A stretch of DNA of 10,994 nt. It comes from a virus. Its lineage: Duplodnaviria; Heunggongvirae; Uroviricota; Caudoviricetes. Numbering within the stretch: the first letter of the stretch is position 1; each line of letters opens with the position of its first letter. Under the pieces are notes generated by a model that saw only the letters and a list, made by a program, of their open reading frames with translations, searched no databases and had not been told where the DNA came from. A program made the position numbers and the translations under genes. Shown here piece after piece: positions 3,318 to 10,994 of this stretch. Location: the IMG/VR virus record IMGVR_UViG_2617270998_000005; one strand, given 5' to 3'.

Positions 3318-3473
3318 ATGGATACTATCGATCTTGGCAACAGCGAATCTCTGGTATGTGGCGTGTTCCCCAACCAGGACGGTACGTTCACCGCGATGAC
3401 GTATACCAAAAGCAAAACGTTTAAAACCGAAAATGGTGCCCGTCGCTGGCTGGAAAGAAACTCAGGTGAGTGA
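3318..3473 (+). CDS. ydfA: small prophage protein YdfA (51 aa)
   Basis: ATG at 3318 with a GAGG SD. Translation MDTIDLGNSESLVCGVFPNQDGTFTAMTYTKSKTFKTENGARRWLERNSGE matches E. coli YdfA as recalled. It is the first gene of the dicB operon. Confidence 0.8.
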   Translation: MDTIDLGNSESLVCGVFPNQDGTFTAMTYTKSKTFKTENGARRWLERNSGE

Positions 3474-3474
3474 T

Positions 3475-4050
3475 ATGGATTTCGACACAATCATGGAAAA
3501 GGCTTACGAAGAATACTTCGAAGGCCTTGCCGAAGGCGAAGAAGCTCTCAGCTTCAGTGAGTTTAAACAGGCACTCAGAATAAGAATGTGCTCTCACAAT
3601 GACGCGGAGCACAAATATGAGAAGCAAAATCAGACCGCAGAAAATTTTGTTCTGGAACCCGGAGAAACGCTTTTCAAAATTCCCGTTACGTGCCCCATTT
3701 GCGGTTTTACATCAGAAGAACTTGACGACTCCTGTAACAATCAGGAAACAACCAAGTATGTCGAAGATGATACCGAGTGCGCACGAAGAACGATTATATC
3801 CACGAGTCCAAACTCCAGGACCAATAAATCTCACTTTGAGAGGGTGATTAATCCACTCCCCCAAACCAATAAAAAAGATGCCGGAGGACAAAAAACCCAA
3901 TGGAACAACGGGATATCTGTCAAAAAAAGACGTTCCATTAAAGACAAACAACGCAGCGCCAACAACTGTAAGCGCTTTATACCAGTAATCAATTTTCATG
4001 TTCTTAAGCGGATTTATTGGTGGTTGCGACATTGCTTAATGAATCCTTAA
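3475..4050 (+). CDS. ydfB/ydfC-region ORF (191 aa as a single open frame); N-terminal part credible, C-terminal part doubtful
   Basis: ATG at 3475-3477, overlapping the ydfA stop, with an AGGTGAG SD. The first ~120 residues look protein-like (MDFDTIMEKAYEEYFEGLAEGEE..., CPICG motif). The last ~70 residues are K/N/R-rich and coincide with a minus-strand hydrophobic ORF (3712..4032). It may be a fusion or may really end earlier. Confidence 0.45.
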   Translation: MDFDTIMEKAYEEYFEGLAEGEEALSFSEFKQALRIRMCSHNDAEHKYEKQNQTAENFVLEPGETLFKIPVTCPICGFTSEELDDSCNNQETTKYVEDDTECARRTIISTSPNSRTNKSHFERVINPLPQTNKKDAGGQKTQWNNGISVKKRRSIKDKQRSANNCKRFIPVINFHVLKRIYWWLRHCLMNP

Positions 4051-4309: not shown

Positions 4310-4365
4310 TTTCTGGTGACGTTTGGCGGTATCAGTTTTACTCCGTGACTGCTCTGCCGCCGTTT
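4310..4365 (+). ncRNA. dicF: DicF small regulatory RNA (about 53 nt; antisense regulator of ftsZ and other mRNAs)
   Basis: Sequence TTTCTGGTGACGTTTGGCGGTATCAGTTTTACTCCGTGACTGCTCTGCCGCC followed by GTTTTT matches DicF as recalled. It sits in the expected place between the ydfABC region and dicB. Confidence 0.8.
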
Positions 4366-4536
4366 TTAAAGTGAATTTTGTGATGCGGTGAATGCGGCTA
4401 AGCGCACGCGGAACAGTTAAAACCAAAAACAGTGTTATGGGTGGATTCTCTGTATCCGGCGTTAATTGTTAACTGGTTAACGTCACCTGGAGGCACCAGG
4501 CACTGCATCACAAAATTCATTGTTGAGGACGCGATA

Positions 4537-4725
4537 ATGAAAACGTTATTACCAAACGTTAATACGTCTGAAGGTTGTTTTGAAATTGGTGTCACTATCA
4601 GTAACCCTGTATTTACTGAAGATGCCATTAACAAGAGAAAACAAGAACGGGAGCTATTAAATAAAATATGCATTGTTTCAATGCTGGCTCGTTTACGTCT
4701 GATGCCAAAAGGATGTGCACAATGA
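4537..4725 (+). CDS. dicB: cell-division inhibitor DicB (62 aa)
   Basis: ATG at 4537 with a GAGGA SD. Translation MKTLLPNVNTSEGCFEIGVTISNPVFTEDAINKRKQERELLNKICIVSMLARLRLMPKGCAQ matches E. coli DicB as recalled. Confidence 0.9.
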   Translation: MKTLLPNVNTSEGCFEIGVTISNPVFTEDAINKRKQERELLNKICIVSMLARLRLMPKGCAQ

Positions 4726-4913
4726 ATTCAGCATTTGCGCTTGTTCTGACAGTTTTTCTTGTTTCCGGAGAGCCAGTTGATATTGCAGTCAGTGTTCACA
4801 GGACAATGCAGGAGTGTATGACTGCAGCAACCGAACAGAAAATTCCCGGTAACTGTTACCCGGTCGATAAAGTTATTCACCAGTATAATATCGAAATCCC
4901 GGCAGGTCTTTAA
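4722..4913 (+). CDS. ydfD: prophage small protein YdfD (63 aa; reported lysis-inducing in K-12)
   Basis: ATG at 4722-4724 overlaps the dicB TGA (ATGA). Translation MNSAFALVLTVFLVSGEPVDIAVSVHRTMQECMTAATEQKIPGNCYPVDKVIHQYNIEIPAGL matches YdfD as recalled. The N-terminal segment is hydrophobic. Confidence 0.85.
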   Translation: MNSAFALVLTVFLVSGEPVDIAVSVHRTMQECMTAATEQKIPGNCYPVDKVIHQYNIEIPAGL

Positions 4914-5006: not shown

Positions 5007-7478
5007 ATGAGTAAAGTCTTTATTTGCGCCGCTATTCCTGACGAACTGGCAACAAGGGAAGAAGGCGCTGTGGCTGTAGCCACAGCCATTGAAGCTGGCG
5101 ACGAACGCCGTGCTCGAGCAAAATTTCACTGGCAATTCCTGGAACATTATCCGGCTGCTCAGGACTGCGCTTATAAATTTATTGTCTGCGAGGATAAACC
5201 TGGCATACCCCGCCCTGCCCTCGATTCATGGGATGCTGAATATATGCAGGAAAACCGCTGGGATGAGGAGTCTGCTTCTTTTGTCCCGGTTGAGACTGAA
5301 TCCGATCCGATGAACGTCACTTTTGACAAGCTGGCCCCTGAAGTACAGAACGCTGTCATGGTTAAGTTCGACACATGTGAAAACATCACCGTTGATATGG
5401 TTATTAGCGCACAGGAATTGTTGCAGGAAGACATGGCAACATTCGACGGACATATCGTTGAAGCGTTGATGAAAATGCCAGAAGTTAACGCCATGTATCC
5501 GGAGCTTAAGTTGCACGCCATTGGGTGGGTTAAGCATAAATGTATTCCTGGTGCCAAATGGCCCGAAATTCAGGCAGAGATGCGCATCTGGAAAAAACGT
5601 CGCGAAGGTGAACGCAAGGAAACCGGAAAATACACGTCTGTTGTTGATCTCGCCCGCGCCAGAGTCAACCGGCAGAACACTGAAAACTCAACAGGAAAAA
5701 TCCACCCTGTCACTGCCGCCATTCGTCGCGAATACAAGCAGACATGGAAAACACTGGATGATGAACTGGCCTACGCTCTGTGGCCTGGTGACATTGATGC
5801 CGGAAACATTGACGGCAGCATCCATCGCTGGGCAAAAAATGAAGTTATCGACAACGACCGCGAAGACTGGAAGCGTATCTCGGCATCAATGCGCAAACAG
5901 CCTGATGCCCTTCGCTACGACCGCCAGACTATTTTTGGCCTTGTCCGTGAACGTCCGATCGACATTCACAAAGACCCTGTGGCACTGAACAAATACATTA
6001 CTGAATACCTGACTACAAAGGGCGTGTTTGAGAATGAAGAAACAGACCTGGGCACTGTTGATGTTCTCCAGTCATCAGAAACACAAACTGATGCAGTGGA
6101 AACTGAGGTATCTGATATCCCAAAAAATGAAACCGCGCCGGAAGCTGAACCATCTGTAGAGCGTGAGGGGCCGTTCTATTTCCTCTTCGCAGATAAGGAC
6201 GGAGAAAAATACGGTCGCGCAAACAAACTTTCTGGTCTGGATAAGGCACTGGCTGCTGGCGCCACTGAAATCACAAAAGAAGAATATTTTGCCCGAAAAA
6301 ATGGCACATACACGGGCTTACCGCAAAATGTAGATACCGCTGAAGATTCAGAACAACCAGAGCCGATAAAAGTTACCGCTGACGAAGTAAACAAAATTAT
6401 GCAGGCAGCCAATATCATCCAGCCTGACGCCGATAAGTTGCTTGCTGCATCACGTGGTGAATTTGTTGAAGGGATTAGTGACCCGAATGATCCGAAATGG
6501 GTTAAGGGGATCCAGACCCGCGATTCTGTGAACCAGAACCAGCATGAATCGGAACGGAACTACCAAAAAGCGGAACAAAACAGCCCAAATGCGTTACAAA
6601 ACGAGCCAGAAACGAAACAGCCTGAATCAGTGGCGCAACAGAAAGTGGAAAAAGTCTGCACCGCCTGCGGTCAGACCAGCGGCGGCAACTGCCCTGATTG
6701 TGGCGCGGTAATGGGCGACGCAACATACCAGGAAACATTCGATGAAGAGTATCAGGTTGAAGTTCAGGAAGATGATCCGGAGAAAATGGAAGGCGCTGAA
6801 CATCCACACAAGGAGAACACTGGCGGCAATCAGCATCACGATAGCGATAATGAAACTGGCGAGACGGCAGATCACTCAATTAAGGTGAACGGTCATCACG
6901 AAATCACATCCACCAGCAGGACGTGTGACCATCTAATGATCGACCTTGAAACCATGGGAAAAAATCCTGATGCCCCGATCATCTCAATAGGTGCAATATT
7001 TTTCGATCCGCAAACCGGAGATATGGGACCGGAATTTAGTAAGACTATCGATCTGGAAACTGCTGGCGGAGTCATTGATCGGGACACCATTAAATGGTGG
7101 CTTAAGCAATCACGCGAAGCGCAATCTGCCATTATGACCGATGAAATCCCGTTAGATGATGCACTGTTACAATTGCGGGAATTTATCGACGAAAACTCCG
7201 GTGAATTTTTTGTTCAGGTCTGGGGAAATGGAGCCAACTTCGACAACACGATTTTGCGCCGTTCATACGAACGGCAGGGGATCCCCTGCCCGTGGCGTTA
7301 CTACAACGATCGCGATGTACGCACAATCGTTGAGCTGGGGAAAGCCATAGACTTCGATGCCAGAACGGCTATTCAATTCGAAGGTGAGCGCCATAATGCA
7401 CTTGATGACGCCCGTTACCAGGCAAAATACGTTTCAGTTATCTGGCAAAAACTGATCCCGAGTCAGGCTGATTCTTAA
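5007..7478 (+). CDS. ydfE: YdfE-like large prophage protein (823 aa): N-terminal YdfE-homologous domain, acidic central region with a CxxC...CxxC zinc ribbon, C-terminal DEDDh-type 3'-5' exonuclease domain
   Basis: A GAGG SD precedes the ATG. The N-terminus MSKVFICAAIPDELATREEGAVAVATAIEAG... matches K-12 YdfE as I recall it. The C-terminus carries exonuclease motifs DLETMG (Exo I), WGNGANFDNTIL (Exo II) and HNALDDARYQAKY (Exo III). A CTACGQTSGGNCPDCG ribbon is encoded at about 6658-6705. Confidence 0.85.
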   Translation: MSKVFICAAIPDELATREEGAVAVATAIEAGDERRARAKFHWQFLEHYPAAQDCAYKFIVCEDKPGIPRPALDSWDAEYMQENRWDEESASFVPVETESDPMNVTFDKLAPEVQNAVMVKFDTCENITVDMVISAQELLQEDMATFDGHIVEALMKMPEVNAMYPELKLHAIGWVKHKCIPGAKWPEIQAEMRIWKKRREGERKETGKYTSVVDLARARVNRQNTENSTGKIHPVTAAIRREYKQTWKTLDDELAYALWPGDIDAGNIDGSIHRWAKNEVIDNDREDWKRISASMRKQPDALRYDRQTIFGLVRERPIDIHKDPVALNKYITEYLTTKGVFENEETDLGTVDVLQSSETQTDAVETEVSDIPKNETAPEAEPSVEREGPFYFLFADKDGEKYGRANKLSGLDKALAAGATEITKEEYFARKNGTYTGLPQNVDTAEDSEQPEPIKVTADEVNKIMQAANIIQPDADKLLAASRGEFVEGISDPNDPKWVKGIQTRDSVNQNQHESERNYQKAEQNSPNALQNEPETKQPESVAQQKVEKVCTACGQTSGGNCPDCGAVMGDATYQETFDEEYQVEVQEDDPEKMEGAEHPHKENTGGNQHHDSDNETGETADHSIKVNGHHEITSTSRTCDHLMIDLETMGKNPDAPIISIGAIFFDPQTGDMGPEFSKTIDLETAGGVIDRDTIKWWLKQSREAQSAIMTDEIPLDDALLQLREFIDENSGEFFVQVWGNGANFDNTILRRSYERQGIPCPWRYYNDRDVRTIVELGKAIDFDARTAIQFEGERHNALDDARYQAKYVSVIWQKLIPSQADS

Positions 7479-7550: not shown

Positions 7551-7802
7551 ATGAGCGAAGTAATCATGATTGTCTCTCCCGGCAAATGGGTATCCGAAGA
7601 GCAGTTAATTGCGCTGAAAGGAATAAAAAAAGGTACCTTAAAAAAGGCCCGGGAAAAATCGTTTATGGAAGGAAGGGAATATAAGCATGTCGCTCATGAC
7701 GGTATGCCATGGGATAACAGTCCATGCTTTTACAACCTGGAAGAAATTGATCGCTGGATTGAGCGCCAGGCATCAGCAAGACCAAGACGTCATCTTACTT
7801 GA
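7551..7802 (+). CDS. xis: putative excisionase (Xis-like, 83 aa)
   Basis: Small basic ORF immediately upstream of, and co-oriented with, the integrase gene. It contains a GREY...H segment reminiscent of lambda Xis. The assignment rests on position and size; the start (7551 vs 7566) is uncertain. Confidence 0.55.
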   Translation: MSEVIMIVSPGKWVSEEQLIALKGIKKGTLKKAREKSFMEGREYKHVAHDGMPWDNSPCFYNLEEIDRWIERQASARPRRHLT

Positions 7803-7836
7803 CTAAAAGCCACACTAACTAATGAGAGAAGTTGAA

Positions 7837-9117
7837 ATGAAATATCCGACAGGCGTGGAAAACCATGGAGGGAAATTACGTATCTGGTTTGTTTATAAAG
7901 GCGTAAGAGTCAGGGAAAACCTGGGGGTTCCTGACACAGCAAAAAACAGGCGCGTTGCAGGTGAGCTACGCGCCTCTGTTTGTTACGCAATAAAAACTGG
8001 TGTTTTCGACTATGCAAAACAGTTTCCCTCCTCACGCAATCTGGAAAAATTTGGTGAGGCCCGACAAGATTTAACCATAAAAGAACTGGCTGAAAAATTT
8101 CTGGCACTGAAAGAAACTGAAGTCGCAAAAACATCACTCAACACATACCGTGCCGTCATCAAAAATATCCTGAGCATAATCGGTGAAAAAAATCTTGCCT
8201 CATCGATTAATAAAGAAAAATTACTGGAGGTTCGTAAAGAGCTACTGACTGGATACCAGATCCCCAAAAGTAACTATATTGTTACACAACCAGGGAGATC
8301 GGCTGTAACTGTAAATAATTACATGACAAATCTTAACGCCGTGTTCCAGTTTGGTGTTGATAACGGTTACCTGGTAGATAACCCGTTTAAGGGGATCTCG
8401 CCATTAAAGGAATCAAGAACCATTCCGGATCCTCTTTCGCGGGAGGAATTCATCCGTCTTATCGATGCGTGCAGAAATCAGCAAGCCAAAAATTTATGGT
8501 GTGTTTCTGTTTATACTGGCGTTCGCCCTGGTGAGCTGTGTGCACTTGGATGGGAGGACATAGATCTGAAAAATGGAACAATGATGATCAGGAGAAATTT
8601 AGCAAAAGACCGTTTCACGGTACCAAAAACACAGGCGGGAACCAATCGGGGCATTCATCTTATTAAGCCAGCAATCGACGCTCTCCGGAGTCAGATGACA
8701 TTAACGAGACTGAGCAAAGAGCATATCATTGATGTTCACCTCAGAGAGTATGGCAGAACAGAAAAACATAAATGCACCTTTGTTTTTCAACCTGAAGTGT
8801 CAGCGAGAGTAAAAAATTATGGTGACCATTTTACCGTTGACTCAATAAGGCAGATGTGGGACGCAGCGATAAAACGTGCCGGACTCCGCCATCGAAAATC
8901 ATATCAGTCGAGACATACTTATGCCTGCTGGTCGCTGACAGCTGGTGCTAACCCGGCATTTATAGCAAACCAGATGGGCCATGCAGATGCGCAAATGGTA
9001 TTTCAGGTATACGGAAAATGGATGTCTGAAAACAATAATGCACAGGTAGCTTTGTTAAATACACAGTTAAGCGAGTTTGCCCCAACCATGCCCCATAACG
9101 AAGCAATGAAAAATTAA
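7837..9117 (+). CDS. int: phage integrase, tyrosine recombinase family (426 aa from the ATG at 7837; the ORF track starts at 7822)
   Basis: C-terminal catalytic region has Arg in TGVRPGE, an SRHTYACW box, and GHADAQMVFQVYGKW with the nucleophilic Tyr. The ATG at 7837 has a GAGAGAAG SD-like stretch; the ATG at 7822 has none. It lies at the prophage end next to a chromosomal gene. Confidence 0.88.
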   Translation: MKYPTGVENHGGKLRIWFVYKGVRVRENLGVPDTAKNRRVAGELRASVCYAIKTGVFDYAKQFPSSRNLEKFGEARQDLTIKELAEKFLALKETEVAKTSLNTYRAVIKNILSIIGEKNLASSINKEKLLEVRKELLTGYQIPKSNYIVTQPGRSAVTVNNYMTNLNAVFQFGVDNGYLVDNPFKGISPLKESRTIPDPLSREEFIRLIDACRNQQAKNLWCVSVYTGVRPGELCALGWEDIDLKNGTMMIRRNLAKDRFTVPKTQAGTNRGIHLIKPAIDALRSQMTLTRLSKEHIIDVHLREYGRTEKHKCTFVFQPEVSARVKNYGDHFTVDSIRQMWDAAIKRAGLRHRKSYQSRHTYACWSLTAGANPAFIANQMGHADAQMVFQVYGKWMSENNNAQVALLNTQLSEFAPTMPHNEAMKN

Positions 9118-9304: not shown

Positions 9305-9740
9305 TTATTCAGAAAAAGTGAGTAAGACTTTGCAGCAATGTTTTTGATCCTGTTCAAATAAACTAATGGCATCAGCAACATGCTGGAAATCAAACGTATG
9401 GGTAATTAATTTTTCTGGTTTAATTAACCCTTTACTTAACCAGTCGATAACGATCGGGAATTTATTTGCATTTAAGCGTGAAGAGAAAATAGAGAGTTCT
9501 TTTCCGGTAATTCCTTGCTGAATCACTTCAGACGGTTCACTGGAGAACCCCATCAATACAATACGTGCCGCTGGAGAAGCCAGCGTTACGGCCTCTTTCA
9601 GGATAGAAGGATGACAAGCCGCATCGATAATTAATGTCGGCTTGATGCCTTTTTCAGTGAAAATCTCGCCAAGCGGTGTCTGGCTGTTATTAATCGCCCA
9701 GTCAGCCCCGCTCTCTTTGAGCCTGTTCAGGATTCTGTGT
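9305..9740 (-). pseudogene. rspB: 3' fragment of an rspB-like zinc-dependent alcohol dehydrogenase gene, 5' part removed by IS insertion
   Basis: Translation ...KESGADWAINNSQTPLGEIFTEKGIKPTLIIDAACHPSILKEAVTLASPAARIVLMGF...KVLLTFSE is a C-terminal MDR/Zn-ADH cofactor domain, with no N-terminal catalytic domain. The upstream frame runs into IS sequence. The upper boundary near 9740 is approximate. rspB is the gene I recall flanking this prophage end in K-12. Confidence 0.7.
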
Positions 9741-10994
9741 AAATACCTTTTCTCAGAAGTGGCCGTCCAGGCGGTCACCGAACTCGATAATAAAGCGGCT
9801 CATTGCCATACGCCAGTCCCGCAGTGGCATCGTCCATTTCTGTGAAGCCGCCTGGATTGCCAGCCACACCACTTTTTTCACCGAGTCGTCTGTCGGGAAC
9901 ACTTTACGCTTTTTGATCGCATGGCGGATCACGCTGTTTAGCGACTCGATGGCATTCGTCGTATAGATCACTTTGCGGATGTCCGTTGGATAAGCGAAGA
10001 ACGTGGCAAGATTCGGCCAGTTAGCCTGCCAGCTTCGGCTTATCTGAGGATAGCGACAGTCCCAGGCCGCAGCGAACGCTTCCAGTGCCTGCTGGCCTGC
10101 CTCTTCCGTGGGAGCCTGATAAATCGCTTTCAGGTCGCGAGTGACGGCTTTGTAGTCCTTCCATGACACGAAGCGCAGGCTGTTGCGCACCATATGCACG
10201 ATGCATAACTGGATGCGGGCCTTCGGATATACTGTGTTGATGGTATCCGGGAAGCCTTTCAGGCCATCCACACAGGCGATGAGGATATCGTTCAGACCGC
10301 GGTTTTTCAGTTCAGTCAGCACATTGAGCCAGAACTTCGCCCCTTCATTTTCGGCCAGCCACATACCCAGCAGTTCTTTCTGACCTTCGATATTGATGCC
10401 CAGTGCCAGGAACACCGATTTGTTGATGACGCGACTGTCCTGCCGAACTTTCAGGACGATACAGTCAAGATAAACAATGGGGTAAACAGCATCCAGTGGT
10501 CGGTTTTGCCATTCTACAACCTGCTCCATCACGGCATCGGTAACCTTTGATATCAGTGCCGGTGAAACATCTGCGTCATACAGTTCTTTGAACGCAGCAG
10601 CTATCTCACGGGTGGTCATCCCTTTGGCATACAACGAGAGGATCTGGTTATCCATCCCGGTAATACGGGTCTGATTTTTCTTTACCAGTTGTGGTTCGAA
10701 GGTACCGTCACGATCGCGCGGAGTACGCAGTTCCAGTGGACCGTCGCCTGTGATAACGGTCTTTGTGGAAAAACCGTTGCGGGAGTTAGCTCCTGGTCTG
10801 GACTGATTTTTCTCATACCCAAGATGGTGTGTCATCTCTGCATTGAGAGCGGCTTCAACGCTGAGCTTTTTCAGCAGCCGATCAAACTGACTGAGGTCTT
10901 CAGGGGTTTTGAGGTTTTTGGCCAGTTCGTTAGCCAGAGCCTGTAACTGTTTTTCGTCCATAAATTAACCTTCATTTGATGCTGGATTGAACAT
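9700..10994 (-). mobile_element. IS256-family insertion sequence (partial; left end beyond window, right end approximate) inserted in rspB
   Basis: Transposase gene plus the abrupt end of rspB homology a few tens of bp past the transposase stop. Inverted repeats could not be defined because only one end is in the window. Confidence 0.7.
9753..10961 (-). CDS. tnpA: IS256-family (mutator-type) transposase, 402 aa
   Basis: Full-length ORF with a GAAGG SD before the ATG at 10959-10961. The sequence has typical IS256-family features (MDEKQLQALANELAK... N-terminus; ...YTTNAIESLNSVIRHAIKKRKVFPTDD... core). Exact IS name not assigned. Confidence 0.88.
   Translation of the reverse strand: MDEKQLQALANELAKNLKTPEDLSQFDRLLKKLSVEAALNAEMTHHLGYEKNQSRPGANSRNGFSTKTVITGDGPLELRTPRDRDGTFEPQLVKKNQTRITGMDNQILSLYAKGMTTREIAAAFKELYDADVSPALISKVTDAVMEQVVEWQNRPLDAVYPIVYLDCIVLKVRQDSRVINKSVFLALGINIEGQKELLGMWLAENEGAKFWLNVLTELKNRGLNDILIACVDGLKGFPDTINTVYPKARIQLCIVHMVRNSLRFVSWKDYKAVTRDLKAIYQAPTEEAGQQALEAFAAAWDCRYPQISRSWQANWPNLATFFAYPTDIRKVIYTTNAIESLNSVIRHAIKKRKVFPTDDSVKKVVWLAIQAASQKWTMPLRDWRMAMSRFIIEFGDRLDGHF

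Follow-up and report, generated by a model that had tools for sequence, protein, structure and literature searches.

A predicted RecE-family protein with a swapped DEDDh exonuclease head in a Qin-like lambdoid prophage

The stretch of DNA examined here, called the window throughout, comprises 10,994 nucleotides (nt) of the IMG/VR virus record IMGVR_UViG_2617270998_000005 and is a Qin-like lambdoid prophage. Its plus strand carries, in this order, a repressor gene, a ydfA-like gene, an open reading frame (ORF) of 205 amino acids (aa), the small RNA (sRNA) DicF, dicB, ydfD, a large gene for a putative exonuclease, xis and int, and the minus strand carries an O-like replication gene, a CII/YdaT-like gene and cro. 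The large gene (5007-7478, plus strand) is the subject of this study. According to the ORF list and its translation, it is an uninterrupted frame of 823 codons that starts with ATG about 10 nt downstream of a GAGG-like ribosome-binding site, and its 823-aa product is covered end to end by PHROG 2082. Sequence comparisons show that the product of this extremely widespread gene, which has received only generic annotation, belongs to the RecE family but has exchanged its catalytic head, a RecE-like scaffold being followed by a predicted DEDDh 3'-5' exonuclease domain.

An earlier note on this DNA, made from the sequence alone, had claimed an intact frame, and the gene is indeed real and under purifying selection. 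When compared with the orthologues of phages Evi and mEp460, the folded modules have ratios of non-synonymous to synonymous substitution rates (dN/dS) of 0.03-0.31, and the linkers have ratios of 0.35-0.81. Of the 5426 complete Escherichia coli genomes, 3537 (65%) contain at least 80% of the gene, at up to 10 places per genome, and several isolated temperate phages carry it; truncated or internally deleted representatives, such as P0121, also exist. The comparison with Evi (locus L014, 6001-8481) is instructive, as the N-terminal modules are 95-99% identical at the protein level with a dS of 0.06-0.37, and the DEDDh module is 72% identical with a dS of 1.07. A diverged head beside near-identical N-terminal modules points to recombination within the gene between lineages, that is, to an exchange of modules.

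The modular layout was drawn from sequence comparisons and from an AlphaFold model of residues 1-470 of the window protein. The N-terminal alpha/beta domain, of the YdfE type (residues 1-100; 5007-5306), is modelled with a predicted local distance difference test score (pLDDT) of 85-93. It precedes a helical domain (residues 105-206; 5319-5624; pLDDT about 90, dN/dS 0.06-0.11), which is the end of the part kept in K-12 YdfE, and a second helical domain (residues 245-340; 5739-6026; pLDDT 81-91) homologous to RecE residues around 278-360, as seen by BLASTP and with the NCBIfam RecE model. Residues 386-432 (6162-6302) form a small beta/alpha unit in the model, with the signature GPFY...GRANKL...EEY.ARKNG and a dN/dS of 0.03-0.05; this unit is the best-conserved part among YdfE-type scaffolds, and G388, P389, F390, Y391, G399, R404, K407, E421 and I422 are invariant in 47 sequences. 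Further downstream, four of the 11 cysteines of the protein (C551, C554, C562 and C565) are arranged as CxxC-x7-CxxC in a Cys4 zinc ribbon, CTAC-x7-CPDC (6657-6701), that aligns with RecE CNACGQTGGDNCPDCG and gives weak Pfam matches to the DZR and RZ zinc fingers. Segments rich in Asp and Glu flank the ribbon on both sides, with 14 acidic and 1 basic residues at 341-385, where pLDDT falls below 50 for residues 344-384, and 19 acidic and 4 basic residues at 566-640. The second of these contains the acidic, His-rich tether (residues 566-635; 6702-6911; dN/dS 0.75-0.81) that joins the scaffold to the catalytic head and is, from its composition, probably disordered. The zinc ribbon and the long acidic linker announced in the earlier note are thus both recovered. 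A structure comparison of the scaffold, N-terminal domain included, gave no solved structural relative.

The relationship with RecE extends over the whole non-catalytic part of the protein. By BLASTP, residues 262-625 align with RecE 278-591 (E 1e-60), with near identity in the LLAASRGEF...DPNDPKWVKGIQTRD stretch, in the ribbon and in the acidic His-rich tether. Likewise, residues 241-625 match positions 264-602 of the 877 positions of the NCBIfam RecE equivalog NF007259 with 275 bits, as compared with a cut-off of 1269. The segment of residues 475-622, equivalent to RecE 455-588, is shared with recE at the DNA level as well (6431-6873; 77% identity over 443 nt by blastn), and it is the sole DNA-level match to K-12 recE. 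Towards the N-terminus the resemblance is remote: the first 205 residues are collinear with the RecE N-terminus in an HHalign comparison (probability 96%, E 2.5e-9, 196 columns; 0.1% in a control with an unrelated alignment), and the alpha/beta domain of residues 1-100 matches the RecE-type N-termini with a probability of 91.5% and an E value of 8.7e-7. The beta/alpha unit of residues 386-432 gives a gapped, dissimilar alignment with K-12 RecE. On the basis of these alignments, we consider the non-catalytic residues 1-625 to be homologous to RecE, remotely so at the N-terminus.

Homology to RecE stops at RecE residue 591, where the RecE nuclease domain begins and where relatives keeping the RecE-type head carry PF12684. 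The PD-(D/E)XK 5'-3' nuclease domain is not present in the window protein, whose C-terminus is DEDDh by both the RecE alignment and Pfam. Given this homology of residues from about 262 to 625, and the remote homology of the N-terminus, the protein is, as judged from its sequence, a RecE-family mosaic and not an orphan, in which a RecE-like scaffold is joined to an unrelated head of opposite expected polarity. With RecE (exodeoxyribonuclease VIII of the Rac prophage in K-12), it shares the N-terminal domains (remotely), the helical middle domain, the LLAASRGEF...KWVKGIQTRD motif, the Cys4 ribbon and the acidic tether, together with the same early-operon slot after a kil-type gene and before xis-int. 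It differs from RecE in having the unrelated DEDDh 3'-5' exonuclease in place of the C-terminal PD-(D/E)XK 5'-3' exonuclease acting on double-stranded DNA, and in the absence of recT downstream, whereas recE is followed by recT.

The head itself is readily classified. Three motifs of a DnaQ/DEDDh exonuclease had been pointed out in the C-terminal 190 residues or so (DLETMG at residue 646, FDNTIL at 745 and HNALDD at 796), and a profile search of Pfam now places residues 642-813 (6930-7445) in the Rv2179c-like family PF16473 with an E value of 3e-67 and 226.2 bits for a cut-off of 27, over profile positions 2-177 of 177; PF00929 (RNase_T) is a weaker Pfam match of the same region. In a pairwise alignment with T4 DexA (exonuclease A; PDB 8KEL and 8KEN), D646, E648, D746, H796 and D801, encoded on the plus strand at 6942, 6948, 7242, 7392 and 7407, align with D7, E9, D119, H186 and D191, respectively. 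We therefore predict a DEDDh exonuclease with a complete catalytic pentad in motifs Exo I, II and III and with the 3'-5' polarity expected from its family. Searches by sequence retrieved DexA as the sole solved structure (E 2e-6 with the full-length protein, 7e-8 with the domain alone). It shares the DEDDh fold family with about 28-32% identity; it is, however, a stand-alone protein of 227 aa with extra loops, while the window protein has a scaffold of 635 residues before the domain. In the same alignment, DexA W152 is replaced by Y766 and the loop with DexA D169 is deleted, while DexA D90, the "tetramer" Asp, is retained as D718.

The closest stand-alone relatives of the head, at 55-59% identity over its full length, are exonucleases of about 190 aa from Yersinia phage YeP1 and Escherichia phage SKA5, which share the MIDLETMG and HNAL(A/D)D motifs and the last position before xis/int; unlike the window gene, they are devoid of scaffold and lie among HD-hydrolase, EaE and Ea22 accessory genes. 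Rv2179c of Mycobacterium tuberculosis, a stand-alone protein with exoribonuclease activity in vitro, is the founder of PF16473, of which the window head is a strong member, although it is not detectable by a direct PDB sequence search with the window protein.

The match of the N-terminus to the K-12 YdfE remnant, also put forward in the earlier note, is borne out, residues 1-256 being 98% identical (250/256) to the product of ydfE (b1577, annotated as a pseudogene). The similarity ends where IS2E is inserted. K-12 YdfE, in the Qin prophage, thus resembles the window gene in this part and in its locus next to rspB, but IS2E interrupts it after codon 256, and the middle domain, the ribbon, the tether and the exonuclease are missing. 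The family has entries in PHROG (2082) and in Pfam (YdfE_N, YdfE_C and Rv2179c-like); for YdfE_N and YdfE_C (PF27430 and PF27432), the matches come from precomputed annotation of P0001, a homologue with 93% identity, and of every relative listed. Database names for its members include "exonuclease", "3'-5' exoribonuclease (domain-containing protein)" and, wrongly, "exodeoxyribonuclease VIII". The view that the family is uncharacterised holds insofar as a literature search retrieved no paper on the function of YdfE-type exonucleases, but a family that is found in phages and in 65% of the complete E. coli genomes, with PHROG, Pfam and RefSeq entries of its own, is not obscure.

The scaffold is associated with several different heads. 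In a library of 1.84 billion representatives of clusters at 50% identity, a search with residues 1-640 found only 249 scaffold relatives at E <= 1e-3; a second search, seeded with representative P0135, was used in addition. Heads and N-termini were then mapped by BLASTP in representatives of at least 480 aa. The YdfE-type N-terminus is found with a DEDDh head in 3 of them, a RecE-type PD-(D/E)XK head in 3, a Rad52-like head in 13 and a fourth, P0125-type, head in 4; for the RecE-type N-terminus, the corresponding numbers are 3, 6, 1 and 0. DEDDh heads are joined to both N-terminal types, in several genera and via the same conserved ribbon and tether. As an example, P0128 combines a RecE N-terminus (100% identical over 277 residues) with the ribbon and a head 98% identical to that of the window.

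The third head, with the motif KKSLTDAxKKALSxLGFxADV, has no significant Pfam match, and a profile search of PDB sequences found nothing; weak matches to Rad52_Rad22, under the gathering score, occur in 11 of the 13 members (best E 0.0015). Together with a fold comparison, these matches lead us to describe this head as putatively Rad52-like. The fourth head, of about 260 aa, is carried by YdfE-type scaffolds in Enterobacter (P0125, P0258, P0260 and P0267) and belongs to PHROG 26058, with no Pfam match. A protein of 555 aa from Enterobacter cloacae (P0352; YdfE_N, YdfE_C and HTH_ParB) was considered as a further head type and set aside as probably a one-off deletion fusion, because the related locus L007 carries a distinct HTH_ParB gene (9639-10466) a few genes downstream. 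Taken as a whole, the sequence comparisons portray the scaffold as a platform for interchangeable heads, namely the RecE nuclease, a Rad52-like annealase and the DEDDh exonuclease. Its fusion to two established recombination activities is the main reason for assigning the DEDDh version to the metabolism of DNA ends or to recombination.

Gene order extends this picture beyond the protein. In every DEDDh locus examined, xis/int comes directly after the gene and an annealase gene is absent: these loci are those of the window and its 99.8%-identical relative, of phages HannyBb, Evi and mEp460, of an 813-aa version with a RecE-type N-terminus in phage vB_EcoS-640R1 and in a dog isolate, of P0128 in a Rac-like prophage (sieB-kilR-ydaE-[gene]-xis-int), and of two further representatives. 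The versions with a PD-(D/E)XK head are followed by RecT, as seen in the Rac prophage of K-12 and, with an N-terminus of the YdfE type, in a prophage of Pantoea, and the Rad52-head versions occupy the same slot after KilR or, in Citrobacter, after a GamL-family gene. As RecT stands beside the PD-(D/E)XK versions and no annealase stands beside the DEDDh ones, the DEDDh head replaces the pair of nuclease and annealase and not the nuclease alone. In the window, RecT, Bet, Erf and Rad52-type proteins had no match among the ORFs scanned; with regard to the two-component recombinases RecET and lambda Red, both the adjacent annealase gene, among these ORFs, and the 5'-3' nuclease, as judged by the polarity of the family, are absent. 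Rac recE-recT lies in the slot matching that of the window gene, and lambda gam-bet-exo occupies the corresponding one.

In the Citrobacter koseri prophage (L009 and L010), the GamL-family gene (PF28165; 5697-5990) directly precedes the scaffold-annealase gene, downstream of which there is a Sipho_Gp157 gene; this order, kil-gam-[scaffold-annealase], resembles the lambda Red region. A Gam-like gene was not recognised in the window.

Whereas the earlier note put the gene between the dicB operon and xis-int, the gene is in fact the distal one of a series in the same orientation, after DicF, dicB and ydfD, with xis and int directly after it. DicF (4311-4362, plus strand) is full length and intact (Rfam RF00039, 72.5 bits). 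It is followed on the same strand by dicB (4432-4725; Pfam DicB, domain at residues 36-97) and ydfD (4668-4913; Pfam DUF1482) and, beyond the exonuclease gene, by those for the excisionase (7551-7802; PHROG 539) and the tyrosine integrase (7822-9117; PHROG 1), all four assignments agreeing with the RefSeq annotation, in the case of dicB and ydfD that of a 99.8%-identical locus. As listed, the DicB ORF has a GTG start at 4432 and 35 N-terminal residues in excess of the 62-aa DicB domain, and for this reason the real start is probably further downstream. In K-12, the dicB operon is repressed by DicA. A scan for promoters and terminators gave fewer promoter-like sites than in shuffled sequences and says nothing on a separate promoter.

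Several observations concern the remainder of the prophage. The 205-aa ORF (3433-4050, plus strand) overlaps the end of the ydfA-like gene and sits where K-12 has ydfB and ydfC; it belongs to PHROG 35040, of unknown function, has no Pfam or PADLOC match, and only its first 48 residues or so match a shorter PHROG (2061). Beyond the integrase, the minus strand encodes a 402-aa transposase of the Mutator/IS256 family (9753-10961; PF00872, E 5e-118). Since identity to the reference E. coli genomes ends at 9718, where the references run into rspB, and the transposase lies just past the integrase, an insertion sequence appears to have inserted at or near the junction of prophage and chromosome. At the other end, the first 320 bases or so of the window have no match in the 99.8%-identical reference prophage (L001), which has a SIR2-family gene (1801-2760) upstream of a DUF977 gene; the replication-distal cargo varies among such prophages.

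From the above, we infer the biological role as follows. The protein, an intact member of the YdfE/RecE family encoded in the early operons of lambdoid prophages, most likely acts as a tethered 3'-5' DNA exonuclease in the lytic development of the phage, as a single-protein DNA-end processor and not as a classical exonuclease-annealase recombinase, a reading in which our confidence is about evenly divided between belief and doubt. Expression would follow relief from DicA-type repression, on the model of the dicB operon in K-12; the scaffold would bring the tethered head to the DNA structure or partner recognised by the scaffold of RecE, probably linear DNA ends or recombination and replication intermediates, where the head would trim 3' ends after the manner of T4 DexA in double-strand-break repair and host-DNA scavenging. 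Scavenging of host DNA and intron homing are recognised roles of DexA (PMC12153337). Among the functions suggested in the earlier note, a recombination accessory is the better supported option, whereas an anti-phage or anti-defence function finds no direct support; PADLOC gives no match, and the residues proposed to read 5-hydroxymethylcytosine (5hmC) are not conserved.

Several points weigh against the role of a tethered DNA-end processor. The 3' tails needed by annealases or RecA cannot come from a 3'-5' exonuclease, and with no annealase present either, it is not obvious by what mechanism the protein would serve recombination. The literature yielded no activity, no substrate, whether DNA or RNA, and no phenotype; no structural relative of the scaffold was found that might indicate its binding target; and co-transcription with dicB would follow from knowledge of K-12 and from gene order. 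Furthermore, the stand-alone heads of YeP1 and SKA5 share the last position before xis among Ea-type accessory genes, which weakens the argument from position, and a deletion could have created the fusion by bringing a RecE-type scaffold and an adjacent accessory gene together. A rival reading makes the protein a fortuitous fusion, without function as a unit, of a decaying RecE-like gene with a downstream accessory exonuclease. Besides the stand-alone heads found at the same position in related phages, it can call upon the truncated copy that K-12 tolerates and on truncated or deleted representatives such as P0121, but strong purifying selection acts on all folded modules, the frame is intact in the 3537 genomes mentioned above, often in several copies, and several genera have DEDDh heads fitted, by way of the conserved ribbon and tether, to N-termini of both types. 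We regard such an accident as far-fetched.

The other explanations accept a functional unit and differ in its target. As the main alternative, the head could be a nuclease of the HREX type that defends against other phages, selectively degrading the modified (5hmC) DNA of invading T-even phages and protecting the lysogen or the induced cell, and its homology to DexA, its prophage location adjoining dicB and the Ea-type accessory genes around its stand-alone relatives are consistent with this. EcD, or HREX (GenBank HAK9828821.1), is likewise a DexA-family DEDDh exonuclease encoded by E. coli; it was reported in 2025 to degrade T4 DNA and not unmodified DNA, and its expression from a plasmid to protect against T4 (PMC12153337). 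Our comparison with EcD rests on its primer-derived N-terminus and on the residues described in that study, from which it is a different, stand-alone protein that starts with MIDTET (in the cloning primer) and has Ala (A78) where DexA has D90 and the window protein D718; in addition, the 20-nt core of its reverse primer had a single chance match in viral contigs, which is not an exonuclease. The window head has neither of the proposed 5hmC-reading residues, with Tyr766 for W152 and no loop for D169, to which reading of the hydroxymethyl group has been attributed, PADLOC recognised neither the protein nor its neighbours, the scaffold is common to recombination enzymes and free-living temperate phages keep the gene. 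Moreover, the operon concerned is one that DicA represses in K-12, and we consider a defence function unlikely. A role in host takeover or counter-defence during lytic growth, through the scavenging of host DNA or oligonucleotides or the destruction of single-stranded DNA or oligonucleotide signals of host immunity, would suit the common activity of DEDDh enzymes on short oligonucleotides, an early lytic operon beside the host-directed dicB and ydfD, and the lack of an annealase partner. Lambdoid phages, however, are not known to degrade the host chromosome, no specific host target is indicated, and the tethering to a RecE-type scaffold that elsewhere bears annealase and RecE nuclease heads would be left unexplained; although DexA scavenges host DNA (PMC12153337), we find this role quite improbable. 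Finally, trimming or degradation of RNA 3' ends, for example of the DicF precursor or of host RNAs, is suggested by the name of the best Pfam family, taken from the 3'-5' exoribonuclease of M. tuberculosis, by the many RefSeq entries called "3'-5' exoribonuclease" and by the co-orientation with the processed sRNA DicF. The RefSeq names look copied from that of the domain, however, DexA, the one structurally solved relative that sequence searches detect, degrades DNA, the RecE nuclease and Rad52-like annealase heads act on DNA, and K-12 makes DicF with a ydfE truncated before the head, so that we hold an exoribonuclease to be very unlikely.

The interest of the DNA-end processor proposed here lies less in its nuclease domain than in what the natural head swaps may say about the scaffold of RecE. 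RecE/RecT is in standard use for recombineering and for direct cloning, and the front part of RecE remains unexplained: a 2023 review describes it as "of unknown function", although full-length RecE is required for efficient linear-linear recombination (PMC11611040). One scaffold appears to be reused with three heads, and the version with a 3'-5' exonuclease and no annealase is present in about two-thirds of complete E. coli genomes. The natural chimeras, the 386-432 unit, the ribbon and the clear swap junction provide tools for asking what the scaffold binds. Annotations are corrected as well: many "exodeoxyribonuclease VIII" entries are without the RecE nuclease domain and some have the Rad52-like annealase. 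The findings likewise touch on the recent proposal that DexA-like exonucleases of prophages serve in defence, the alternative being that their genes belong to phage DNA metabolism. As a wider and decidedly tentative proposal, which we would sooner doubt than assert, the non-catalytic region of about 600 residues in RecE may be a general delivery platform of enterobacterial lambdoid phages, bringing interchangeable DNA-transaction heads (5'-3' nuclease, 3'-5' nuclease or Rad52-type annealase) to one common target; the DEDDh version would then be a single-protein, annealase-independent system for DNA-end processing or for the modulation of recombination, and not an accessory nuclease.

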